Virus genome (UHGV): UHGV-0206691
Source: a virus
DNA length: 45,469 nucleotides
Direction: 5' to 3' (one strand)
Shown: one piece after another, positions 1,830 through 44,257 of the stretch
Position numbering within the stretch: the first letter of the stretch is position 1
Layout of the letters: the number at the start of each line of letters is the position of its first letter
Notes under the pieces: model-generated
The model's input: only the letters and a program-made list of their open reading frames with translations
Database searches by the model: none
Told to the model about the DNA's origin: nothing
Position numbers and translations under genes: made by a program

Positions 1830-1860
1830 CTTCTGTCTCTCCTCTCGTTTGTGTAAATGA

Positions 1861-1889
1861 ATAGTAGTCTATTCTATCACAGTGTGCAA
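1861..1889 (-). promoter_or_regulatory. early promoter, TTGCAC-N17-TACTAT class
   Basis: minus strand reads TTGCAC, 17-nt spacer, TACTAT, then TCA; AATAG-N4-CTATT inverted repeat overlaps -10; lies just upstream of gene 1701..1829. Confidence 0.5.
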
Positions 1890-1896
1890 GTAAATT

Positions 1897-2073: not shown

Positions 2074-2197
2074 TGTTGCATCTCCTGCAATAGTCGCTTC
2101 GATTGTTGCGTTTGGTGAAATAGAACAAAAATGAGAAAAATGATACGCTGCTGTGTAGCAGCGTAAGTCACTCAGTAAAATCCCAAACTATTGAACA

Positions 2198-2815: not shown

Positions 2816-3055
2816 TTATTCACGGCAACCTCCCTCAGAGTCGTCGGCACGAGCATCATGATTCGATGCCGTTGTGAATAACGCTAGCCATCTCCAGGTA
2901 TAAACACACATACGTCCTTCATATACATCCTCATCAGTTACCCTGTAATCATCGCCATCATCTGAGGTAATGCACCCATCGCTACTTAGCACATAACTTT
3001 TTCCTTCTGTGAAGTAATCACATAGACTGGTTATACAAATTAATTCTTCCATCAC
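2816..3055 (-). CDS. hypothetical acidic Cys-containing protein
   Basis: ORF track; co-directional in early operon. Confidence 0.4.
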   Translation of the reverse strand: MMEELICITSLCDYFTEGKSYVLSSDGCITSDDGDDYRVTDEDVYEGRMCVYTWRWLALFTTASNHDARADDSEGGCRE

Positions 3056-3237
3056 TTCACCCCTTTGAATTTAAAATTGTTGCCGATGAGTTCTAAATCC
3101 CACTTGCGGAGTAACCCTTTACCAAACCCGGATACGCTATTAACCTCAACGAAACCGAACCACATTAACTTTGATTCTGTTACCGTAAATAAATTGCCTG
3201 TAAATTTATCCCTAACCAACTGACCCTTCTTAAACAT
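3052..3237 (-). CDS. hypothetical protein (61 aa), first gene of leftward early operon
   Basis: ORF track; AGGAG upstream; promoter 3272..3300 upstream. Confidence 0.45.
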   Translation of the reverse strand: MFKKGQLVRDKFTGNLFTVTESKLMWFGFVEVNSVSGFGKGLLRKWDLELIGNNFKFKGVK

Positions 3238-3271
3238 AACCCTAACTCCTCTGTCTCGTTCCGATAAGTGA

Positions 3272-3300
3272 ATAGTATCCTATTATGTTGGGGTGTGCAA
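3272..3300 (-). promoter_or_regulatory. early promoter, TTGCAC-N17-TACTAT class
   Basis: minus strand reads cTTGCACaccccaacataataggaTACTATtcactta; near-identical to the promoters at 26855, 36202 and 38070. Confidence 0.55.
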
Positions 3301-3746
3301 GAGATTCATTGAAAATGGTTACGTTGCCGTTGTGGATTCTTTCGTTTCTTGGAAGAGTACGCAACGCAGTGGGTGGGCGTTAGCCCACCCCAGCGGAGTG
3401 AAGTACTCTCAACAATGCTCACGGCAACTATAGAAACTTTTAATTATCAGATACTTAAGAGATATGCTGCCGATGAGAATAGAGCTTGCCCATGGCAACC
3501 GGAGATACTAAGGAAGGAAAGTTACGATAATTCATATGTTCAGTAATCTGCCGCTTAACACTTCGCTTGCGCTTTGGCGCAGCTGCGTTTCAAGCGGGTA
3601 TTACAAGGTGAACAGGAATCAAAGTAACTAAGATATAGAAGCACCTTAAACGAAGATTTTCATAATGTCAATAGGTGCAATTATGTTTGATTTCCCATTA
3701 TTCGCAATGTATGCTTGGTTCGTTAACTGATAATGAGGGTTTGAGA

Positions 3747-3917
3747 ATGACGCAGAATGAAGTAGCGGAGCGTATCGGGGTTACTCGCCGCACACTGAAT
3801 AACTGGTTAAAGAGTGGGAAGTTCCCGGATTGCTGTATTCGCATTATGGGCCGCCGTCAGCCAGGTACGTTTGACCCGGCGAAAGTGGAAGCGTGGATTA
3901 AGGAGAACGTGAAATGA
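3747..3917 (+). CDS. AlpA/excisionase-like HTH DNA-binding protein
   Basis: ORF track 3675..3917 trimmed to ATG (MTQNEVAERIGVTRRTLNNWLKSGKFP) with GAGGG upstream; HTH_17-like pattern. Confidence 0.55.
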   Translation: MTQNEVAERIGVTRRTLNNWLKSGKFPDCCIRIMGRRQPGTFDPAKVEAWIKENVK

Positions 3918-6786: not shown

Positions 6787-6808
6787 GAAAGGGGCATTAA
6801 GCCCCTTC
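6787..6808. terminator. hairpin terminator between convergent genes
   Basis: aaaGGGGCattaaGCCCCttc stem-loop; overlaps the last codons of the XRE gene. Confidence 0.5.
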
Positions 6809-7012
6809 ACCCAACGCCAGCCACTTGGCGTCTACTTCCAGCACTTCCGCCAGTTTAAACAGCGTTGCCGGGCGGACGTCCTGAGTTACTCCGAGTGCAA
6901 GCTGGTTAATCGCGCCCTGGGAAACGCCAGCCAGGACCGCCAGACGGCGCTGGGAGATGCCGAGTTCTTTGCGGCGTTGTTCTACGCGTATGCCTAGTTC
7001 AGATGGTTGCAT
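6797..7012 (-). CDS. XRE-family (Cro/CI-type) HTH transcriptional regulator
   Basis: ORF track; LGISQRRLAVLAGVSQGAINQLALG helix-turn-helix; AAGGAG RBS; divergent from gene 7137. Confidence 0.7.
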   Translation of the reverse strand: MQPSELGIRVEQRRKELGISQRRLAVLAGVSQGAINQLALGVTQDVRPATLFKLAEVLEVDAKWLALGEGA

Positions 7013-7076
7013 GTCAATTACTCCTTAGTCAGTTGATATGTGAATAGTACCATATTAATTATTTTAGAAAAGCCCA

Positions 7077-7105
7077 TTGACATGTGAATAGTTCGCTATT
7101 ATAGT
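7077..7105 (+). promoter_or_regulatory. sigma70-type promoter TTGACA-N17-TATAGT with AATAG-N4-CTATT inverted repeat in spacer
   Basis: ttgacaTGTGAATAGTTCGCTATtatagt, 31 nt upstream of gene 7137 with GAGAGGAGAG RBS. Confidence 0.6.
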
Positions 7106-7136
7106 TAGCCCATACCAAACGAGAGGAGAGAAACAA

Positions 7137-7658
7137 ATGTTAGACCAATTCTTAAAATTACTTGAACGTTTCGTAGTTGCACATGAACTGATTGCCGCGA
7201 ATAGCGTGAAACCACAAAACGGCAAATCAGTAGGTGAATTAACCGTTGATGTTGCGGTAACGGGAGTAGAAACAGTTAAAAAAGAACTGGCTAAAGCACT
7301 TGAAGAAGTCGAGAAAGCAAAAGAAATCCCGGTTGAAGGCAAAGACATCGTCGACACCAAACCTGCGGAAGAAGAGAAGCCTAAACGCAAGCCGCGTAAA
7401 GCTAAAGTAGAGGAGCCGGCGCTAGAGCCGGAAGAAGAGAAAGAAGAAGTCGATTACCAGTCTCTGCGTGACCAGATTCAGGCTATCGACGATGCGATTA
7501 ACGAAGGTCCGAGCGATGCCGCGTGCGATGATTCCGATGAACTGCTGGAAGAGTTCACCGGTAAGAAGATGAAGATTGCCGCGATTAAAGACGAAGACCT
7601 GGCTGAGTACCTGGAGCGCCTGACAGCAATCAAGAACAAGTATTTCGAAGAAGAATAA
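7137..7658 (+). CDS. highly acidic hypothetical protein (173 aa)
   Basis: ORF track; runs of E/D (EEEKPKRKPRKAKVEEPALEPEEEKEEVDY, DDSDELLEEF); first gene behind a strong promoter. Confidence 0.55.
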   Translation: MLDQFLKLLERFVVAHELIAANSVKPQNGKSVGELTVDVAVTGVETVKKELAKALEEVEKAKEIPVEGKDIVDTKPAEEEKPKRKPRKAKVEEPALEPEEEKEEVDYQSLRDQIQAIDDAINEGPSDAACDDSDELLEEFTGKKMKIAAIKDEDLAEYLERLTAIKNKYFEEE

Positions 7659-7701: not shown

Positions 7702-8091
7702 ATGAAATACGAAGATATGAGCGATTTTGAAATTAATTGTGCAGTGGCAGTCGCATTAGATTTGAATGAACATTTGTTCTTCCCGTCGGGCGTAGAAGAC
7801 TTTGATAGTGATACCGATGATTCAGACATGGGGCCGGTGTGGCAAACAAGAATGCCGTTTGTTAAAGGTTTTAGACCTTCTAATGGTAATTTATTTAACC
7901 CGTGCAACAACATAGACATAGCGTGGCAAATTATAACCCGCAATCATATATCAATTGAATGTGTTACGGTAAACCGGCATACAGTTACATATCGCGCGTA
8001 TCACTCTGCATCTTTCACCAAAAGTACGCACGAAAACCCCCTACGCGCCGCTATGATTGTCTTTCTGAAAATGCGGGAGAAGGCGCAATGA
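7702..8091 (+). CDS. hypothetical protein (129 aa)
   Basis: ORF track; GAGGG RBS. Confidence 0.5.
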   Translation: MKYEDMSDFEINCAVAVALDLNEHLFFPSGVEDFDSDTDDSDMGPVWQTRMPFVKGFRPSNGNLFNPCNNIDIAWQIITRNHISIECVTVNRHTVTYRAYHSASFTKSTHENPLRAAMIVFLKMREKAQ

Positions 8092-9994: not shown

Positions 9995-10023
9995 TTGACA
10001 CCTGAATAGATAGCTATTATATT
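9995..10023 (+). promoter_or_regulatory. sigma70-type promoter TTGACA-N17-TATATT with AATAG-N4-CTATT inverted repeat in spacer
   Basis: ttgacaCCTGAATAGATAGCTATtatatt upstream of gene 10084. Confidence 0.6.
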
Positions 10024-10083
10024 TCTAATCACTGGCCGGGCAGCTCCCGGAGTAAACGAAACTGAAAACTGAGGAATCGAGAT

Positions 10084-10722
10084 ATGGGTATCAAAGTTAA
10101 ACTGAGCAACGTGCGTATCGGATGGGTAGACGTTTATAAGAAAGCAGCGGACCGTGTAAACAGTCAGGGTCAACAAGTAGAGGGACAATACCAGCTTACC
10201 GCGTATCTGGATAAAGACGACCCGCAAATTGATAAAATTGAAGACGCTGTAACTGAGGTTATGACCGAAGCATTAGGTAGCGCTTCTGCCGCCGAAAAAT
10301 GGATGTCAAAAAACTTCGGCTTCGGGAACCATGCGGATAAATGCGCATTCCGCGACCTCGCGCAGCGCGACTCACCGATTGAAGGGCTAGAGGAAGGCTT
10401 GTATTTCATGGCTAAGAGCCGTAAGCAGCCTATGATTGCAACTTCTGAGGGTGAGGTGCAGTGTCAACGCGGCGGGCGTGTAGTTAAGGGCCTTACCGAA
10501 GCGGGTGACGATGTAGAAGGTAAGGAAGTTTATTCTGGTTGTTACGCTAATATCGTAGTTGATGTGTATTGGTACTCAACTTATAAAAACCTCGGTGTAG
10601 AACTCCTCGGTGTTCGCTTTAAGGACGACGGCGAAGCATTCGGCGGTGCCGGAGCTACCGTGGACCTTAACGACCTTGAGGATGACGAACCAGCACCGCG
10701 CCGCGAACGTCGCCGCCGCTAA
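10084..10722 (+). CDS. ssDNA-binding protein, DUF2815-like
   Basis: ORF track; size, acidic C-terminal tail (DLNDLEDDEPAP) and position after DUF2800-like nuclease. Confidence 0.55.
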   Translation: MGIKVKLSNVRIGWVDVYKKAADRVNSQGQQVEGQYQLTAYLDKDDPQIDKIEDAVTEVMTEALGSASAAEKWMSKNFGFGNHADKCAFRDLAQRDSPIEGLEEGLYFMAKSRKQPMIATSEGEVQCQRGGRVVKGLTEAGDDVEGKEVYSGCYANIVVDVYWYSTYKNLGVELLGVRFKDDGEAFGGAGATVDLNDLEDDEPAPRRERRRR

Positions 10723-13512: not shown

Positions 13513-13800
13513 ATGAGTACGCCTGAGGGCAAGATTCAGAAATACGCAAAAGACAGATTCGAGGCCCTGGGGGGCCTCGTACGAAAATTGTCGTACGAAA
13601 ATAGAGTGGGGGCCCCCGACCTGCTGGTAATCCTCCCCGGCGGCATCATCTGGTTCGTAGAGGTTAAGAAAGACGGAAGCACGAAGCCTGACCCGCATCA
13701 GTTACGGGAGCACGAGCGGATGCGTAAACGCGGCGCGAATGTTTTTGTCGTTGGTTCGTTTAAACAGGTTGACGACCTAATAGCGAACTATTATAGTTAG
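13513..13800 (+). CDS. VRR-NUC domain nuclease
   Basis: ORF track 13504..13800 trimmed to ATG after GGGAGGGG; PDLLVILPGGIIWFVEVKK PD-(D/E)XK core. Confidence 0.65.
   Translation: MSTPEGKIQKYAKDRFEALGGLVRKLSYENRVGAPDLLVILPGGIIWFVEVKKDGSTKPDPHQLREHERMRKRGANVFVVGSFKQVDDLIANYYS
13769..13797 (+). promoter_or_regulatory. sigma70-type promoter TTGACG-N17-TATAGT with AATAG-N4-CTATT inverted repeat in spacer
   Basis: ttgacgACCTAATAGCGAACTATtatagt inside the 3' end of the VRR-NUC gene, upstream of gene 13831. Confidence 0.55.
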
Positions 13801-13830: not shown

Positions 13831-14022
13831 ATGAAACACGAATATGACCGCAAACCAGCACGTGATATCGTACCGGGCGACATGATTTTCAACGTTAAGA
13901 CCCGCCAGCCGGTCGCCGTTGATACGGTGTTCGTCGAGTCGAACGGTAAACTGGTTATCGAAGATGTAACTGGTAACGTTACGGCGTTCGGGCGTAAAGA
14001 GCTGGTTTTGGTGGCGAAATGA
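13831..14022 (+). CDS. hypothetical protein (63 aa)
   Basis: ORF track; AAGGAATTGAG RBS; stop overlaps methyltransferase start. Confidence 0.45.
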   Translation: MKHEYDRKPARDIVPGDMIFNVKTRQPVAVDTVFVESNGKLVIEDVTGNVTAFGRKELVLVAK

Positions 14023-14822: not shown

Positions 14823-16239
14823 GTTTCGAAGGCGCGAGTACCAGAAGCTCATGACTTCGTTCATGTTGCGGCACCATCGCTGCAATATCTGGGCGAGCAT
14901 GGGCGCCGGGAAGACCGGCAGCGTACTGTGGGCATTAAACCGACTGTTCCGCAATGGGCAACTTAATGACGACGACCGCGTGTTGATCCTTGCCCCGTTG
15001 CGCGTTGCATCAGGTACATGGCCCGCAGAACAAGATAAATGGAAATTTCCATGTCTTCGTGTCGTCGATGCAACTGGTTCGGAGAAGCGCCGCATAGCGG
15101 CGCTGGAATCAGACGCTAACGTGGTGTGCACAAACTACGAAGTTATCGAGTGGCTTATTGACTACTACGGCAAAGACGACTGGCCTTTTACGGTTATCGT
15201 CGCCGACGAAAGCACGAAGCTGAAATCGTTTCGCAGCCGTTCAGGCGGTAGCAAGAGGGCCAAGGCGCTAAGCAAAGTGGCATTCGGTAGGGTTAAGCGT
15301 TTCATTAACCTGACTGGCACACCATCCCCAAACGGCCTCAAAGACTTGTGGGGCCAGAACTGGTTTATCGACGCTGGTGAGCGCCTCGGTTCTTCATACA
15401 CAGCATTCACCGACCGATGGTTTAACTCAGTACAGAAAGGCAAATCCGCGATGGCGCGTGAGTATCATGCGCGCCCGGGTGCGGATAATGAAATTCACCA
15501 GAAGATGAAGGACATTAGTCTCACGATTGACGCCGCCGAGTGGTTCGGTTGCGAAGCGCCGATTATCGTGCCGGTTGAAATCGGTCTGCCGAAGAAAGCG
15601 CGTCAGGCGTACATTGATATGGAGGAGAAGTTATTTGCGGAACTGGAGAGCGGAGAAGTCGAAGCGGCTAACGCGGCAGCGAAGACATCTAAGTGTTTGC
15701 AGATTGCTTCTGGTGCCGTGTATGTGTCCGGGCCAGATGGCGAAGCAACCAAAGACTGGGAGAAAGTGCATGACACTAAACTGGATGCGCTGGAGTCCAT
15801 TGTTGAGGAGTTACAGGGTGCACCGTTACTGGTGGCGTATCAGTTCAAGCACGAACTGGAGCGCATCCTTAAGCGATTCCCGCAGGCGCAGGCGTTTGCA
15901 AAAGGTGCTAAGGGTAATAAGCAGATGGAAGCGTGGAACCGTGGTGAGATACCTATGCTCCTGATACACCCAGCTTCTGCGGGCCACGGGCTGTCGCTAC
16001 AACATGGCGGACACCATATGGCATTTATGAGTCAGGGGTGGAACCTGGAACATTATTTGCAGGTTATCGAGCGTATAGGTCCGGTAAGGCAGATGCAATC
16101 TGGATACAAACGGTCTGTATTCATTTATCAAATAATAGCCCGAGACACTCTTGATGAAGTTGTCGCCGCTCGTACAGACGAGAAAAGGTCTGTACAAGAC
16201 GAACTACTTAATTATATGAAGAGAAGGAGTAAGAAATGA
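14815..16239 (+). CDS. SNF2-family ATP-dependent helicase
   Basis: ORF track; Walker A GAGKTG, DExx box IVADESTKLK, motif III NLTGTPSPN, helicase-C region near C-terminus. Confidence 0.8.
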   Translation: MSKFRRREYQKLMTSFMLRHHRCNIWASMGAGKTGSVLWALNRLFRNGQLNDDDRVLILAPLRVASGTWPAEQDKWKFPCLRVVDATGSEKRRIAALESDANVVCTNYEVIEWLIDYYGKDDWPFTVIVADESTKLKSFRSRSGGSKRAKALSKVAFGRVKRFINLTGTPSPNGLKDLWGQNWFIDAGERLGSSYTAFTDRWFNSVQKGKSAMAREYHARPGADNEIHQKMKDISLTIDAAEWFGCEAPIIVPVEIGLPKKARQAYIDMEEKLFAELESGEVEAANAAAKTSKCLQIASGAVYVSGPDGEATKDWEKVHDTKLDALESIVEELQGAPLLVAYQFKHELERILKRFPQAQAFAKGAKGNKQMEAWNRGEIPMLLIHPASAGHGLSLQHGGHHMAFMSQGWNLEHYLQVIERIGPVRQMQSGYKRSVFIYQIIARDTLDEVVAARTDEKRSVQDELLNYMKRRSKK

Positions 16240-16721
16240 GCAAGGTATCTTACGACCCTGAAACCGGTATTTTCACATGGGTCGAAACAAAACGTAGGGG
16301 TTTTGTTGGAAAGAACGCTGGATGTTTTTGTCCTCGGGACGGGTACATTCGTATACGAATAAACGGAAAACTAGAACTAGCACACCGGTTAGCATGGGAT
16401 ATATGCAATCCATATAACCCACTTACCCCACAGGAGCAGATATACCACATCAATCACATTCGAACCGATAACCGAATATGCAACCTGCGGAAAGTTACCA
16501 ACACTGAAAATAGCCGCAACGCATCGATAGGGGTGAACAATACTAGCGGCGCTCTTGGTGTATGGCGTGAAAAGAGAAGAAACAAATGGGTAGCAGAAAT
16601 AAAGGTAGACAGAAGAAAAATACATCTTGGCCAGTTTGATGATTTTGACGAAGCTGTTGCCGTGCGTAAAGCCGCGGAAGCTGCTTACGGATTTCATGAA
16701 AACCACGGAGAAACAACGTGA
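16236..16721 (+). CDS. HNH homing endonuclease with AP2-like DNA-binding domain
   Basis: ORF track; HRLAWD...IYHINHIRTDNRICNLRKVTNTEN HNH core; C-terminal WREKRRNKWVAEIKVDRRKIHLGQFDDFDEAVAVRKAAE AP2-like. Confidence 0.8.
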   Translation: MSKVSYDPETGIFTWVETKRRGFVGKNAGCFCPRDGYIRIRINGKLELAHRLAWDICNPYNPLTPQEQIYHINHIRTDNRICNLRKVTNTENSRNASIGVNNTSGALGVWREKRRNKWVAEIKVDRRKIHLGQFDDFDEAVAVRKAAEAAYGFHENHGETT

Positions 16722-26854: not shown

Positions 26855-26883
26855 CTTGCGCGCCCCAATATAATAGGGTACTA
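26855..26883 (+). promoter_or_regulatory. early-class promoter TTGCGC-N17-TACTAT driving accessory cassette
   Basis: cTTGCGCgccccaatataatagggTACTATtcactta; matches promoters at 3272 (minus), 36202 and 38070. Confidence 0.55.
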
Positions 26884-26914
26884 TTCACTTACACCAACAA
26901 TGAAGGGGTTTAAA

Positions 26915-27106
26915 ATGTCCAGTTTACCAGTTTCCTTAATTCTGTTTGCACTGCTAGCCTATTTTGCGCCTTTCCTGGTTGCATATTTCCGCGACCATAA
27001 AGCGAAGTTAGCGATATTCATGGCCAACCTGTTTCTCGGTTGGATTCTTCTGCCGTGGGTATTTATTTTAATCTGGGCTTGCAACTCGAATGTCAAAGAG
27101 AAGTGA
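26915..27106 (+). CDS. Imm-like superinfection-immunity family small membrane protein (63 aa, 2 TM)
   Basis: ORF track 26900..27106 trimmed to ATG with GAAGGGG RBS; RDHKAKLAIFMANLFLGWILLPWVFILIWA resembles recalled Imm-family motif. Confidence 0.5.
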   Translation: MSSLPVSLILFALLAYFAPFLVAYFRDHKAKLAIFMANLFLGWILLPWVFILIWACNSNVKEK

Positions 27107-27143
27107 GCTAGTATAGGACAAATCCTAAGCACGAGGAATAAGC

Positions 27144-28274
27144 ATGGCCCGGAAGAAAATAACCGACGAACAGTTGCAGGAAGAATTGAACGCCGGTATG
27201 AAGAATATCGACATCGCCCGTAAATACGGCATCTCGGACCGCGTTATTCGCATCCGTAAAGCGAAGCTGGCTAAGAAAGGCGTAGGCCACGGGCGCGACG
27301 TTAGCCACCTTGTACCAGATGGCTACAAGATTAAAGGTACATCGTCGCTGGTTGATGAGTTCGGCAACACTAAGCTGCAATGGGTTAAGACCGACACCGA
27401 TGCTGAACGTCAGGTCGAGTTGATGAAAGCCGTAATCGAAGGCATGAAGTCAGAGATTACACCAGTTGCGCCTGTTAAAGCGACTCGAGCCAAACGCGAC
27501 GATAAACTACTCAATCTTTACACGGTATCTGATTTTCATCTCGGTATGCTGGCATGGGCTGACGAGAGCGGCGACGACTGGGATATGAAAATCGCGGAAG
27601 ACATGTTCTCTCGATGGTTCGACGCGGCGTTTCAGAAAGCACCGGATGCAGGAACAGGAGTTATTAACCTGCTTGGCGACCTTGCACACTTCGATAGTCT
27701 GGATGCCGTTACACCCGCGAGCGGTCATATTCTTGACGCGGACACGCGCTACCAGAAACTGGTCCGCTACATGATTCGTATGGTTCGCCGTGTTGTCGAT
27801 ATGGCACTTGTTAAGCATAAGAATGTTCGCTTGCTTATCGTGCAAGGGAACCACGACGAAAGCGGAATGATTTGGTTAGCTGAGATGTTCAGTACACTAT
27901 ACGACAACGAGCCGCGCGTGTTAGTAGATACGTCGCCGGATGTTTACAAGATGGTGCAACACGGCAAAACGACGTTGTTCTTTACACACGGACATAAATG
28001 CCGGTTTGAGGTGGTAGAACCCATTATGATCGCTAAGTTCAGAAAAGCATTTGGCGAAAGCGAGTACAGTTATGCGCATGTCGGACATCTCCACCACCAA
28101 AAGATTGTAGAAAGTAGGAATATGGTAGTGGAGCAGCATCGCACTCTCGCGGCGAAAGATGCATATGCTTCTCGCGGCGGGTGGATGTCAGGTCGGAGTG
28201 CAAACGTAATTACTTATAGCGCCGAATATGGAGAGGTCGCACGTTTAACTATTTCACCGGAGATGTTGGGATGA
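27144..28274 (+). CDS. HTH-fused calcineurin-like metallophosphoesterase
   Basis: ORF track; N-terminal HTH (IDIARKYGISDRVIRIRKAKL); metallophosphoesterase motifs SDFHLG, GDLAHFD, GNHDE, THGHK, GHLHH in canonical order. Confidence 0.75.
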   Translation: MARKKITDEQLQEELNAGMKNIDIARKYGISDRVIRIRKAKLAKKGVGHGRDVSHLVPDGYKIKGTSSLVDEFGNTKLQWVKTDTDAERQVELMKAVIEGMKSEITPVAPVKATRAKRDDKLLNLYTVSDFHLGMLAWADESGDDWDMKIAEDMFSRWFDAAFQKAPDAGTGVINLLGDLAHFDSLDAVTPASGHILDADTRYQKLVRYMIRMVRRVVDMALVKHKNVRLLIVQGNHDESGMIWLAEMFSTLYDNEPRVLVDTSPDVYKMVQHGKTTLFFTHGHKCRFEVVEPIMIAKFRKAFGESEYSYAHVGHLHHQKIVESRNMVVEQHRTLAAKDAYASRGGWMSGRSANVITYSAEYGEVARLTISPEMLG

Positions 28275-28504
28275 TTAAAGCCCTGTGGATTTTCATCGTA
28301 ATGCCGCTTTTGATGCTGTTTGTGCTAGCGGCTGCGGTGCTGTTTCTAGCGGTAGCCTTGTTCTTTATTACTATGGACCCGTCCGTATTCTTTAGCTTGT
28401 ACAAAGAGGTTACACAAGCGGACCTGACAGGCATACGTCTTCTGTACGTAGTCGCCGTCGTAGTTTCTGCGGTTATCATTCTGGCAGAGGAAAGTGATTT
28501 ATGA
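28271..28504 (+). CDS. small membrane protein (77 aa)
   Basis: ORF track; ATGA overlap with upstream gene; hydrophobic segments. Confidence 0.5.
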   Translation: MIKALWIFIVMPLLMLFVLAAAVLFLAVALFFITMDPSVFFSLYKEVTQADLTGIRLLYVVAVVVSAVIILAEESDL

Positions 28505-28731
28505 CTTCAAAATACAACCGCACAATGACAAACACTCACGGTAGCACTATGACAGTAGATGTTTACGATGTGCTACGTGCCTTCGACATCCGTGACCCTG
28601 CGCTACAACATGCATTGAAGAAACTATTGTGCATGGGCTTGCGGGGGCACAAGGACACCGGAACAGACTTAGCGGAAGCAATTGAAAGCCTGGAGAAGTT
28701 ACGGGAGTATCGAAGTAACATTGATGAGTGA
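28501..28731 (+). CDS. hypothetical protein (76 aa)
   Basis: ORF track; ATGA overlap with upstream gene; terminator follows. Confidence 0.5.
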   Translation: MTSKYNRTMTNTHGSTMTVDVYDVLRAFDIRDPALQHALKKLLCMGLRGHKDTGTDLAEAIESLEKLREYRSNIDE

Positions 28732-28734
28732 TAA

Positions 28735-28762
28735 AAAGGCCCCGAAAGGGGCCTTAGTTTTA
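28735..28762. terminator. bidirectional hairpin terminator closing accessory cassette
   Basis: aaaaGGCCCCgaaaGGGGCCttagtttta. Confidence 0.6.
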
Positions 28763-35928: not shown

Positions 35929-36201
35929 CTAGTCCTTATCATTTAAACATAGAAACGGCGTAATCTCAGTAAACCAGTTACTTTTTACACAAGCAATAGA
36001 CTATGGCCCTTCCGAACGCGTCAGCGTAACTACACTCAGGACTTACGTCCCGCTCCGTTACCTGCCCGCGCCGCGGTCGCTTGTTCATACTTCACAAGCT
36101 CAGGTGAGCTTAGCACATTTTCAGTGAAAAGTCAACTATTCGAATAGTTTATTCCGACATTTACAATTGAGCGGAATACCTGGAATACGTAAATAAATAG
36201 T

Positions 36202-36230
36202 TTGCAGACACCAATATAATAGGGTACTAT
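36202..36230 (+). promoter_or_regulatory. early-class promoter TTGCAG-N17-TACTAT
   Basis: tTTGCAGacaccaatataatagggTACTATtcagttaa; 36-nt core identical to copy at 38070. Confidence 0.55.
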
Positions 36231-36258
36231 TCAGTTAACTTAAACAGGAGGTGTTACT

Positions 36259-36492
36259 ATGGGTGCGTACAAACATTCTATAAACTGGAAAGGTAGACGT
36301 GGCTTAGCTGTTCTCGAAGGGGGTGTTTCAGGCCCACACGCGTTTGGGTGGTGGCTAGTTCCATCATATTCAAACAAACATGGCGGGCAGGACTACGACT
36401 GGAATAACGCCATACCTACTAGATTCAAAACAAAGAAAGCCGCGTTGGACGCGCGTAAAGAGTTAAGAAAAGGGGGACTATTTTTACAGTAA
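36259..36492 (+). CDS. hypothetical accessory protein (77 aa)
   Basis: ORF track; CAGGAGGTG RBS; own promoter and terminator; antisense to head module. Confidence 0.5.
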   Translation: MGAYKHSINWKGRRGLAVLEGGVSGPHAFGWWLVPSYSNKHGGQDYDWNNAIPTRFKTKKAALDARKELRKGGLFLQ

Positions 36493-36497
36493 AAATA

Positions 36498-36516
36498 AGG
36501 CCCCTTAAAGGGGCCC
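36498..36516. terminator. bidirectional hairpin terminator
   Basis: AGGCCCCttaaaGGGGCCCT after stop of 36259..36492. Confidence 0.55.
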
Positions 36517-36520
36517 TCTA

Positions 36521-38069: not shown

Positions 38070-38098
38070 TTGCAGACACCAATATAATAGGGTACTAT
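38070..38098 (+). promoter_or_regulatory. early-class promoter TTGCAG-N17-TACTAT
   Basis: tTTGCAGacaccaatataatagggTACTATtcagttaa. Confidence 0.55.
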
Positions 38099-38129
38099 TC
38101 AGTTAAACGACAAAGAGGAGGAAGAAAAC

Positions 38130-38459
38130 ATGATTAATGCTAAAGAAGAGTTGCTCGCCCATCTGGATGGTAAAGATGTAGTTAAATGCGCCTGGTTTGC
38201 AGACTATGATGCGGATGACGCGGATTACGGTTTCGTTGAGGGGAGTAAATGGCTCCTGCGGGAGAATTACTCCCGCGGAGAATGGGAAAGCCTAATGGCC
38301 GCACTTGATTTTGAATACCACGACGGTTACGGCAGTCAAAACTTCTTCGGGGTAATTTGGTACGAAGATGGTACATGGTCTTCTCGCGGAGAATACGATG
38401 GTTCTGAATGGTGGGAATATAATGCCGTGCCGGATGTGCCGGAAGAACTTAAGCGCTAA
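38130..38459 (+). CDS. hypothetical acidic Trp/Tyr-rich accessory protein (109 aa)
   Basis: ORF track; AGAGGAGG RBS; own promoter and terminator; antisense to head module. Confidence 0.5.
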   Translation: MINAKEELLAHLDGKDVVKCAWFADYDADDADYGFVEGSKWLLRENYSRGEWESLMAALDFEYHDGYGSQNFFGVIWYEDGTWSSRGEYDGSEWWEYNAVPDVPEELKR

Positions 38460-38463
38460 AATT

Positions 38464-38487
38464 AAGGCCCCTTTAGGGGCCTTTTCT
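38464..38487. terminator. bidirectional hairpin terminator
   Basis: AAGGCCCCtttaGGGGCCTTTTcttatt. Confidence 0.6.
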
Positions 38488-39992: not shown

Positions 39993-41243
39993 TTAAAGTG
40001 CGAAAGTCACCGGGATGTTGATTACTGGTTTAACCACCGGCATCTCGTAAACTACAGGATAGCCGAGAGCATCCGCCATATGGTCAATGATGCCGTCTTT
40101 AGCTGGCTCTCCGTTATCGTCGTATGCCTGCTGCTCCAGCGTCTTCGCTATCTCGGGGCATAAGTGGTCGTTAACCCACAGCTTACCTTTTTCCAGCGCG
40201 GTATTCACGGCTAAAACACGGTCTTTAACCGGGGGGTTGGCAGATTTAGCGCGAACATCAAAACCGGCCTGCTGGAGTAATGCGATATCGGAGATTGATG
40301 CCGAGTTTGTTTTTCGGTTCTTGCCGCTGGCGTCGGGGTAAACAACGATGCGGTGGCCTTGCGACTTCCATTTCTCGGTAATTACGCGCACGGTGTCTGG
40401 CGTATCGAACAGGCCTTTCAGTTCTGCTACCGCGTGCCAGCCGTCTTTACGTTGCACATACACGGCGCTCGCGTTCTTCGTAACGTTGAAGTCCTGCCCA
40501 ATGTACAACGTGTCGCCCGGTTGAATTGTCTCTTTGCTGCGGTGCTTACGGCGGTCGTACGCGTAATACACGCTGCCAGATGTCAGGTTAACGAACTCAC
40601 CGTTCAGATAGGCATTAATCAGTTGCGCCGGGTAAGTCTCTGTCAGCGAGCTAATATAATCCGGCGGCAGGAATCTGGCGTTCTCATGAGTTGATGCCTG
40701 CACCATAGAGTAGCTCGGCGTCGGGTTCTCTTTGAACTTGGCGTAGACGAACTTGAACCCTTCCGGCGTCGTGGTTACAGAGATGTGGTTTGTTACGCCA
40801 GGAATAACAAGACGCATACGCGCTACGATTTTGTTCCACGCCAGCTCAGCTTTCTCGCGACTCAATACGTCCAACTCATCCACGACCGCCGCGGCGATTT
40901 TGAAGCCGACGATAGAGCCGGGGTTGTCCATCGAACGGCAGATAACTGTTCCGAGCACCGTGTTACCACGACTAACCACGACTTCTTTGTCACCGGATTT
41001 AACCAGCACATCGAGGCCGAGCAGGTTGGCCGCTTCCTCAAATGTCGGGTAGAAGATGTCACGGATAGCCGGATATGTAGGGCCGAAGTACCCCAGGCGC
41101 GTACCGGGGTGCTTGAGCATGAACGTAAGCAGGTCGAGGCAGCCGACAAATGTCTTGCCGCTACCGAAGCCGCCTACATAGGCTTTGTATTTGTTATCGC
41201 AATTCAGGAACAGTGCCTGTGGTGCGGATAGCTGAATACTCAT
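39993..41243 (-). CDS. terL: terminase large subunit
   Basis: ORF track; Walker A VGGFGSGKT near N-terminus; acidic nuclease-domain residues in C-terminal half; 416 aa. Confidence 0.9.
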   Translation of the reverse strand: MSIQLSAPQALFLNCDNKYKAYVGGFGSGKTFVGCLDLLTFMLKHPGTRLGYFGPTYPAIRDIFYPTFEEAANLLGLDVLVKSGDKEVVVSRGNTVLGTVICRSMDNPGSIVGFKIAAAVVDELDVLSREKAELAWNKIVARMRLVIPGVTNHISVTTTPEGFKFVYAKFKENPTPSYSMVQASTHENARFLPPDYISSLTETYPAQLINAYLNGEFVNLTSGSVYYAYDRRKHRSKETIQPGDTLYIGQDFNVTKNASAVYVQRKDGWHAVAELKGLFDTPDTVRVITEKWKSQGHRIVVYPDASGKNRKTNSASISDIALLQQAGFDVRAKSANPPVKDRVLAVNTALEKGKLWVNDHLCPEIAKTLEQQAYDDNGEPAKDGIIDHMADALGYPVVYEMPVVKPVINIPVTFAL

Positions 41244-42183: not shown

Positions 42184-42417
42184 TTCCCCACTCTCCTCTT
42201 TAGCAATGCGCTGCTCAGTTTTAGTGATACCACGGCGCGTGAATAGCACCGGGCTTGTCTTAACGTGCGTCATCAGACGGTTGTTATAAATTACGTGGCG
42301 CTCGCAATCAACGTCTTTGCTGTACTTCGCAATCGTCATTTCGCAGATGCCGGTTTGTCGGCAAGTCTCAGACATACTTCCATACTCTTCAATCAGTTTA
42401 GGGATGCTGGTAATCAA
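42181..42417 (-). CDS. hypothetical protein, possible HTH
   Basis: ORF track; TTG start; my reading of the 3' end disagrees with the track by 1 nt. Confidence 0.35.
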   Translation of the reverse strand: MITSIPKLIEEYGSMSETCRQTGICEMTIAKYSKDVDCERHVIYNNRLMTHVKTSPVLFTRRGITKTEQRIAKEESGE

Positions 42418-44228: not shown

Positions 44229-44257
44229 AATATAATAGGGTCGATGGTAATAGTCAA
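44229..44257 (-). promoter_or_regulatory. sigma70-type promoter TTGACT-N17-TATATT
   Basis: minus strand TTGACTattaccatcgaccctatTATATT, about 35 nt upstream of gene 43983..44195. Confidence 0.55.

Follow-up and report, generated by a model that had tools for sequence, protein, structure and literature searches.

A palindrome built into the promoters of a Kagunavirus-like phage: candidate operator of a Cro-like repressor

Introduction

The 45,469-nucleotide (nt) virus genome UHGV-0206691, analysed here over its whole length and hereafter called the window, carries at position 38,070 a promoter-like element with an embedded inverted repeat, AATAG-N4-CTATT. A model that saw the letters of the sequence had described five near-identical copies of this element and proposed that they form one co-regulated early regulon (the original prediction). 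The question raised by this locus is whether the element is simply a promoter that has been copied around the genome, or whether the palindrome inside it is read by a protein and, if so, by which one.

The window is Kagunavirus-like and belongs to the Guernseyvirinae, virulent siphophages of E. coli and Salmonella, with ~90% identity to phages such as BEU35 and phiWAO78-1; hundreds of records of Salmonella Jerseyvirus likewise match it. The repeat is already published and is not a new observation. In the Kagunavirus fBC-Eco01, PHIRE returned seven copies with the consensus tgAATAGTa-ccTATTat-T, which were labelled promoters of a phage RNA polymerase (PMC9825357), and in the Jersey-like phage SGP-C it returned the element TAATAGTACCCTATTATGTT (PMC8790156). 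Both are the reverse complement of the core found here. For VB_EcoS-Golestan, seven PHIRE promoters are reported (PMC7203180). These papers list repeats; none of them remarks on the palindrome, on the existence of two promoter architectures, on a connection with a Cro-like gene or on the cassette boundaries described below. The GenBank record of Jersey annotates several equivalent sites as sigma-70 promoters.

We propose, with a probability of about 50%, that the elements are host sigma-70 promoters with a built-in operator, and that a dimeric helix-turn-helix (HTH) repressor, most probably a 71-amino-acid (aa) XRE protein resembling 434 Cro, binds the palindrome and blocks the polymerase.

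Results

Five copies of one promoter

The degenerate 32-nt pattern TTGCRSRC-N4-RNANAATAGRNTACTATTCA finds exactly five sites in the window, all with 0 mismatches, and none in 100 dinucleotide-preserving shuffles. The five elements of the original prediction are thus present, four of them at the positions given there and the third starting at 26856 instead of 26855. We refer to them as class A:

1858-1889, minus strand: promoter A1; -35 TTGCAC 1884-1889, -10 1861-1866, palindrome 1860-1873; heads a 42-aa open reading frame (ORF), 1701-1829.
3269-3300, minus strand: promoter A2; -35 TTGCAC 3295-3300, -10 3272-3277, palindrome 3271-3284; heads the leftward operon of small genes, which begins with gene 3052-3237.
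26856-26887, plus strand: promoter A3; -35 TTGCGC 26856-26861, -10 26879-26884, palindrome 26872-26885; heads the 26915-28731 cassette, beginning with its Imm gene.
36202-36233, plus strand: promoter A4; -35 36202-36207, -10 36225-36230, palindrome 36218-36231; heads 36259-36492.
38070-38101, plus strand: promoter A5; -35 TTGCAG 38070-38075, -10 TACTAT 38093-38098, palindrome 38086-38099; heads 38130-38459.

All five combine a TTGCAS-type -35 (TTGCAC, TTGCGC or TTGCAG), a 17-nt spacer, the -10 hexamer TACTAT and a following TCA. As had been proposed, the palindrome AATAG-N4-CTATT overlaps the -10 in every copy, its right arm supplying the hexamer itself (tACTATt). The spacer was said to end in ATAATAGG(G/A) throughout; this holds for four of the five copies, while the one at 1889 ends in AGAATAGAC. 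A4 and A5 are identical across 37 nt. An ATG with a purine-rich ribosome-binding site (RBS) follows each -10 by 28-34 nt in the matching orientation, and the assignment of the minus copies to the leftward small-gene operon and of the plus copies to three accessory cassettes also stands. A1 lies within the leftward arm, on the downstream side of terminator 2144-2165. A scan of IMG/VR for the class A core in unrelated phages returned only single chance matches outside Kagunavirus-like contigs of ~44 kb.

We note three local peculiarities around these copies. At A1 only (1849-1893, minus strand), flanking complementarity, TGTGA...TTACA, lengthens the palindrome (-8.6 kcal/mol, z = -4.2; the other copies lie near 0). 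Many Kagunavirus relatives have an additional exact palindrome, AATAG-GTTA-CTATT, at the equivalent of window positions ~2166-2195 (minus strand), where it follows tandem GGTGTAACAGG repeats just upstream of the counterpart of the terminator 2144-2165 (L007 at 14663, L012 at 13351, L016 at 14662, L020 at 14750 and others); the counterpart in the window is degenerate (AATAG-TTTG-GGATT) and lacks the GGTGTAACAGG repeats. Back-to-back with A4, and facing the spanin, scaffold and capsid genes, lies the sequence TTGACT-N17-TAAGCT (36112-36145, minus strand), preceded by an "inside-out" repeat, CTATT-CG-AATAG; it may be a late-gene promoter.

The palindrome recurs in a second promoter class and beside an XRE gene

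Within the window AATAG-N4-CTATT has eight exact copies, against a shuffle mean of 0.02 and a maximum of 1, and a ninth copy with one mismatch. All eight exact palindromes are associated with promoters; seven are intergenic and one, at B3, lies over the final codons of the preceding gene. In the five class A elements the candidate operator reads (T/G)AATAG-N4-CTATT(A/C), of 14-16 base pairs (bp). The three exact copies outside class A lie on the plus strand, inside the 17-nt spacer of a different promoter, TTGACR-N17-TATAKT, which we call class B:

7077-7105, plus strand: promoter B1, TTGACA-N17-TATAGT; palindrome 7087-7100; heads gene 7137-7658 and recombination genes, divergent from the XRE gene.
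9995-10023, plus strand: promoter B2, TTGACA-N17-TATATT; palindrome 10005-10018; heads the genes for SSB (10084-10722) and DNA polymerase.
13769-13797, plus strand: promoter B3, TTGACG-N17-TATAGT; palindrome TAATAG-CGAA-CTATTA 13779-13792; heads 13831-14022 and methyltransferase and helicase genes.

B1 and B2 match the sigma-70 consensus at 11 of 12 positions and B3 at 10 of 12. The distance from -10 to ATG again falls within 28-34 nt, except at B2 (60 nt), and the RBSs are purine-rich. The palindrome is centred at about -13 in class A and at about -18 in class B, and its register and orientation relative to the -35 differ between the two. Because of this opposite orientation and different register, simple duplication of one promoter does not explain how both classes came to carry it. 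Considering both classes, we regard it as very probable that the elements are sigma-70 promoters.

The ninth, imperfect copy lies in front of a regulatory gene:

6797-7012, minus strand: 434-Cro-like XRE/HTH_3 regulator of 71 aa; foremost candidate binder of the palindrome.
7043-7056, minus strand: AATAT-GGTA-CTATT, the imperfect palindrome; it precedes the XRE start codon by 30 nt and has class A geometry without a good -35.

This imperfect form is kept in all Kagunavirus loci examined. The XRE control region contains two sites only, a good distal and a weaker proximal one, 44 bp apart centre to centre, and the divergent partner of the gene is not cI but a 173-aa gene of unknown function. A possible xre promoter, TTCACA-N16-TAAAAT, reads from 7088 to 7061, which would place the distal site ~40 bp upstream of the start and the imperfect proximal site over the start. 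Speculatively, this layout resembles activate-then-repress circuits such as lambda PRM and those of C-proteins. The five-member regulon of the original prediction is therefore right as to the shared element and too small as to its membership, which would extend to the three class B promoters and the site upstream of XRE; its early timing is an inference.

The original prediction had also allowed for an activator or some alternative recognition of the hexamers. Neither is needed, and the geometry does not favour them: a site at the -10 or in the spacer (~-13/-18) occupies a repressor position, and class B matches 10-11 of the 12 consensus bases. Activation of the MerR type is excluded, the spacers having the optimal 17 nt and not an over-long 19-20 bp; the HTH_17 protein discussed below is, at 56 aa, too short for a MerR-type dimerisation helix. 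By inspection we also rejected two other ways of reading class A. Taken on the opposite strand as a class-B-like promoter, it matches the -35 position at no more than 2 of 6 bases; with the TATAAT of the left arm as the -10, the sole TTG hexamer is 7 nt off, without a TG extension.

Some leader and promoter features adjoin this set. The 5' leaders of A1 (1832-1850, minus strand) and B1 (7117-7135, plus strand) have in common the block AAACGAGAGGAGAGA around the RBS, and A2 has the related ACGAGACAGAGGAG, so that leader sequence is conserved as well as the promoter. Between B2 and SSB lies a leader of 60 nt, in which the block ATCACTGGCCGGGCAGCTCCCGGAGT (10028-10053, plus strand), with a CCGGG/CCCGG hairpin, is near-invariant in Kagunavirus, Jerseyvirus and St162; the latter keeps it though the promoter palindrome is lost there, and its very invariance leaves no covariation. 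The block could act on the SSB mRNA as an operator, translational or autoregulatory. TTGACT-N17-TATATT (44229-44257, minus strand), a third type of promoter, directly follows a terminator and heads small genes upstream of the terminase genes. It reads ACTAGTTGACTATT...CCCTATTATATT, with CTATTA half-sites as direct and not inverted repeats, and is kept in nearly all Kagunavirus and Jersey loci; Jersey annotates its counterpart as a promoter (42343-42371).

The palindrome appears to be constrained on its own account

The comparison with relatives covered 60 loci around XRE homologues and 71 around the capsid gene, all from IMG/VR, together with three complete reference genomes. AATAG-N4-CTATT is the commonest 5-N4-5 palindrome in every Kagunavirus and Jerseyvirus locus (tied in one Jersey-type locus), and it is absent from all St162-type loci. 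St162 has sigma-70-like promoters at equivalent positions (SSB gene, antisense cassettes, regulator region) that lack it; the palindrome is thus an add-on, not needed for promoter function. A search for a substitute in St162 gave nothing: the motif ATTAGT/ACTAAT is not enriched in its promoters (16 found against 18.4 expected), and repeat finding listed no promoter-associated family among the families reported for it.

To avoid circular selection, promoters of relatives were chosen solely on TTG-N20-TACTAT. AATAG stands at the expected spacer position in 89 of 97 distinct contexts, with the upstream spacer and the two central bases far less conserved, although these sites are related by descent and the counts are consequently non-independent, supportive evidence and not a formal test. 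Similarly, no arm base changes between Kagunavirus loci in the XRE control region, but the central 4 nt take several forms (cgaa, ctaa, tgaa, caaa). Sigma-70 has no base requirement in the spacer. Fixed arms around a free centre, where sigma-70 has no preference, are therefore the pattern expected of a binding site for a dimeric protein.

A role at the RNA level is not supported: the element has no match in Rfam, the class A hairpin reaches only ~-2.5 kcal/mol, four copies out of five having a z near 0, and the palindrome lies upstream of the predicted transcription start. Judged by its enrichment and its pattern of conservation, the palindrome behaves as the candidate operator of a dimeric regulator that the original prediction had seen in it, and we consider a protein operator the likely function.

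The strongest competing explanation dispenses with a dedicated regulator altogether. A promoter module would have been copied by recombination, and its palindromic look would arise from adjacent -10-like hexamers, TATAAT ... TACTAT. In its favour, the class A copies are near-identical over ~37 nt, with A4 and A5 the same, AT-rich -10-like sequence is partly self-complementary, and cargo changes at the boundaries set by promoter and hairpin, in the manner of the PeSL (promoter-early stem-loop) cassettes of T4-like phages, the exact class A promoter preceding at least 36 unrelated cargo protein families across the sampled relatives. However, class B shares nothing with class A but the palindrome, set in another register and orientation; drift affects the centre and the remaining spacer and spares the arms; and St162-type phages retain promoters without the palindrome. 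Copying without a regulator is for these reasons an unlikely account of the palindrome, if the best of those that compete with an operator read by the XRE protein.

A Cro-like protein as candidate repressor

The XRE protein belongs to Pfam HTH_3 (E 2.3e-12). Among solved structures, 434 Cro is the closest to it in sequence (E 2e-6, 41% identity, same 71-aa length), and its predicted model (predicted local distance difference test, pLDDT, 81.7), with five helices, has as top fold match the same protein, 2cro (template modelling score, TM, 0.74/0.81; 42% identity). The next structural matches are the restriction-modification (R-M) controller proteins C.BclI and C.AhdI, and SinR. 434 Cro, R-M controller proteins and SinR are all dimeric binders of palindromes, and 434 operators are 14-bp palindromes. 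That the palindrome here has this same length favours the 434-Cro-like XRE protein as its binder.

The original prediction had named an XRE or an AlpA-like regulator. The latter corresponds to the following gene:

3747-3917, plus strand: HTH_17 (excisionase/AlpA-like) protein, 56 aa, second candidate binder; own promoter-like sequence TTGATT-N17-TATGCT, 3688-3716, without palindrome.

In 93 loci with both genes, every Kagunavirus-type XRE pairs with the asymmetric form TAATAG-N4-CTATTCA (CTATTCA/CTATTAT), whatever the HTH_17 variant, and Jersey-type XRE pairs with the symmetric TAATAG-N4-CTATTA. Within Kagunavirus, the HTH_17 protein varies (73-100% identity) and its recognition helix reads TRRTLNNW, TRQTINNW or SPMTLNRW, with the site unchanged. 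This finer comparison of loci favours XRE over HTH_17; of the two regulators named originally, XRE is the leading candidate and the AlpA-like protein the less likely one. We put the XRE protein as binder at even odds.

The circuit that we propose would run as follows. Early in infection, host RNA polymerase would fire class B, which is strong, and class A, which has a weaker -35 and is possibly aided by the A-rich upstream DNA seen in the sequence logo. The Cro-like protein would then build up and occupy the palindromes. RNA polymerase would be blocked because the site covers the -10 in class A, or the spacer and the edge of the -10 in class B. Such binding would jointly shut off (I) the leftward small genes (A1, A2), (II) the three antisense cassettes (A3-A5) and (III) the replication and recombination operons (B1-B3), and the repressor's own gene would also be shut down, via the weaker site. 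Shut-off of the cassettes would avert head-on transcription during late-gene expression.

Several observations weigh against this circuit or against XRE as its repressor, in addition to the common descent of the sites noted above. (I) The covariation of site form with XRE type is confounded with genus, with no independent lineage to break the tie. (II) The XRE recognition helix reads SQGAINQ in Kagunavirus and SQSLITH in Jerseyvirus, differing at four positions, yet the AATAG core is common to both; moreover the Jersey helix is nearer to the TQSAISH of St162, though St162 lacks the palindrome. Simple covariation of the XRE recognition helix with the palindrome over the three lineages accordingly fails, the Jersey core being the same and its helix different. 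(III) The two sites beside the XRE gene of Jersey are its poorest copies, with 1 and 2 mismatches. (IV) The sole RNA sequencing study of a relative, that of K1B4, pools 5-30 min as "early" and has an HTH gene among four early genes, too coarse for the timing of single promoters; the same low-resolution data list the superinfection-immunity gene as late. (V) In the literature we found no binding, footprint or transcription-start work on the promoters or regulators of any Guernseyvirinae phage. (VI) Presence and absence across lineages fit the HTH_17 protein better than XRE.

The last point is the core of a second explanation, in which the palindrome is an operator read by the HTH_17 protein in place of XRE. 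This protein carries an HTH DNA-binding domain, and its distribution tracks the palindrome: Kagunavirus and Jerseyvirus, with the AATAG core in common, have versions of it that are 78-86% identical, and St162-type phages have no homologue. With three lineages, however, one gain or loss would suffice to produce this profile. The recognition helix of the HTH_17 protein varies inside Kagunavirus while the site is constant, its own promoter region lacks the palindrome, and our search returned no significant solved relative, hence none that binds palindromes as a dimer. A search for homologues beyond Kagunavirus and Jerseyvirus returned none but one marginal match. Other small proteins common to Jersey and missing in St162 were rejected as binders, having no DNA-binding domain. 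We consider HTH_17 an improbable reader of the site, though less improbable than the two explanations that follow.

A host transcription factor is a poorer candidate still. The TrpR operator, ACTAG-TTAA-CTAGT, has the same 5-N4-5 geometry and agrees with the palindrome at 4 of 5 bases per arm, and the B2 site of Jersey reads TAATAG-TTAA-CTATTA. The differing base, however, falls in the CTAG core that is critical for TrpR, and St162 infects the same host genus, Salmonella, yet lacks the site; we regard binding by such a factor as very unlikely. Finally, promoters for a phage-encoded RNA polymerase, a reading that rests only on the label in PMC9825357, can be dismissed, since PHIRE detects repeats and does not identify a polymerase, the elements have standard sigma-70 -35/17/-10 geometry, and neither the window nor the annotated relatives contain an RNA polymerase gene among the ORFs and annotations checked, all ORFs of at least 650 aa being otherwise assigned (helicase-primase, DNA polymerase, tail fibre, tape measure and tailspike).

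Promoter and hairpin delimit exchangeable cassettes

The late structural and lysis genes of the window occupy the minus strand from the right end down to ~16.9 kb, the replication genes run rightward from ~3.7 to 16.7 kb, and a small-gene block runs leftward from 3.3 kb. The late block is interrupted by three plus-strand cassettes, headed by A3, A4 and A5, which lie between conserved structural genes and antisense to the late genes:

26915-28731, plus strand: A3 cargo; superinfection-immunity protein 26915-27106, metallophosphoesterase/DNA-repair exonuclease 27144-28274, small ORFs 28271-28504 and 28501-28731.
28736-28755, plus strand: A3 terminator hairpin, AAGGCCCC-GAAA-GGGGCCTT.
36259-36492, plus strand: A4 cargo; 77 aa, no family match, unique among sampled relatives.
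36497-36517, no strand assigned: A4 hairpin of the same family, between convergent genes.
38130-38459, plus strand: A5 cargo; 109-aa protein (phrog_3972) of unknown function, without a homologue in phiWAO78-1, Jersey or St162.
38464-38483, plus strand: A5 terminator hairpin, AAGGCCCC-TTTA-GGGGCCTT.

All three close with one hairpin family, AAGGCCCC-N4-GGGGCCTT. With promoter, cargo and hairpin terminator, each is a complete moron. Homology with phiWAO78-1 ends on the promoter side at 38105, immediately after promoter A5, and at 36251, shortly ahead of the ATG of the A4 cargo. On the hairpin side it resumes at 36490 and 28735; at A5, only the hairpin matches within 38457-38487, and orthologous homology is back from 38536. 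Since homology breaks at the promoter and at the hairpin, cargo appears to be exchanged between these two conserved motifs. The comparison thus supports promoter and terminator hairpin as the ends of exchangeable cassettes, and recombination would take place at the motifs themselves.

All three lineages have this hairpin family, even St162 with its palindrome-free promoters (L003 7-34, 23845-23864 and 33084-33111). At the portal/head-morphogenesis site of Jersey (L002 5569-5595), a cassette with an amidase gene has a promoter in which a different, longer palindrome, AATGGTATAT-CT-ATATACCATT, replaces AATAG-N4-CTATT, which suggests that this cassette was imported with a different operator. Elsewhere in the window, the large terminase (39993-41243, minus strand) has 98% aa identity to that of Salmonella phage Jersey against 55% to that of phiWAO78-1, otherwise the closest Kagunavirus, and genes 7702-8091 and 16236-16721 are of Jersey type and not present in phiWAO78-1. 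By sequence comparison, these three genes indicate mosaic exchange between Kagunavirus and Jerseyvirus.

Discussion

The analysis does not overturn current understanding. Most likely, the element is an uncharacterised member of a well-known type of phage circuit and, in addition, a marker of cassette boundaries. It is useful for annotation, as Guernseyvirinae of the genera Kagunavirus and Jerseyvirus are often isolated for therapy or for biocontrol in food, and it corrects the published label of "phage RNA polymerase promoters". One candidate repressor and nine sites make up a testable circuit, which suggests a way for antisense accessory genes to avoid collision with late transcription. The compact cassette of promoter, operator and terminator, with its at least 36 cargo families in relatives, could also serve to engineer these phages.

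Among known systems, 434 Cro is the nearest. As there, a 71-aa HTH_3 protein with the same predicted fold is found together with a 14-bp palindrome of fixed outer bases and variable centre, the core of an early-type promoter is overlapped by each site, and the divergent control region of the regulator gene has two sites. Unlike 434, the phage is virulent, and the annotations of the relatives examined include neither a CI partner nor an integrase. Instead of the tripartite clusters of OR and OL, there is one site per promoter in at least nine places, including inside the late-gene block, and the half-site is AATAG here against ACAA in 434.

R-M controller proteins act through a distal and a proximal palindrome before their own gene, with sequential activation and then repression. 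Similarly to these, small HTH_3 dimers that are among the top structural matches, the XRE gene has a good distal and a weaker proximal site. In contrast to them, the spacing is 44 bp centre to centre, sites occur genome-wide and no R-M system is involved.

Morons are promoter-gene-terminator insertions between conserved phage genes, first described in HK97 and HK022. The A3-A5 units resemble them as promoter-cargo-hairpin units on the opposite strand with variable cargo, including a superinfection-immunity protein; they differ in sharing one promoter-operator and one hairpin family, and in that the operator ties them to the replication genes.

In T4-like phages, the PeSL are mobile composite terminator/promoter cassettes in myovirus hyperplastic regions (PMC2839356, PMC4122927). 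Here too, a conserved promoter and a stem-loop flank variable genes, and homology between relatives breaks there. Unlike the PeSL, promoter and hairpin are not an adjacent composite; they stand at opposite cassette ends, 300-1900 bp apart, and in a siphophage. We tentatively suggest that in this virulent siphophage a single Cro-like repressor and a portable promoter-operator might constitute a genome-wide off-switch for early genes, replication genes and antisense cassettes and, with the hairpin, a recombination "socket" that pre-wires captured genes into the timing circuit. If true, this combination of off-switch and socket would be what the PeSL system is to T4-like phages, with regulation built in, for a siphophage.

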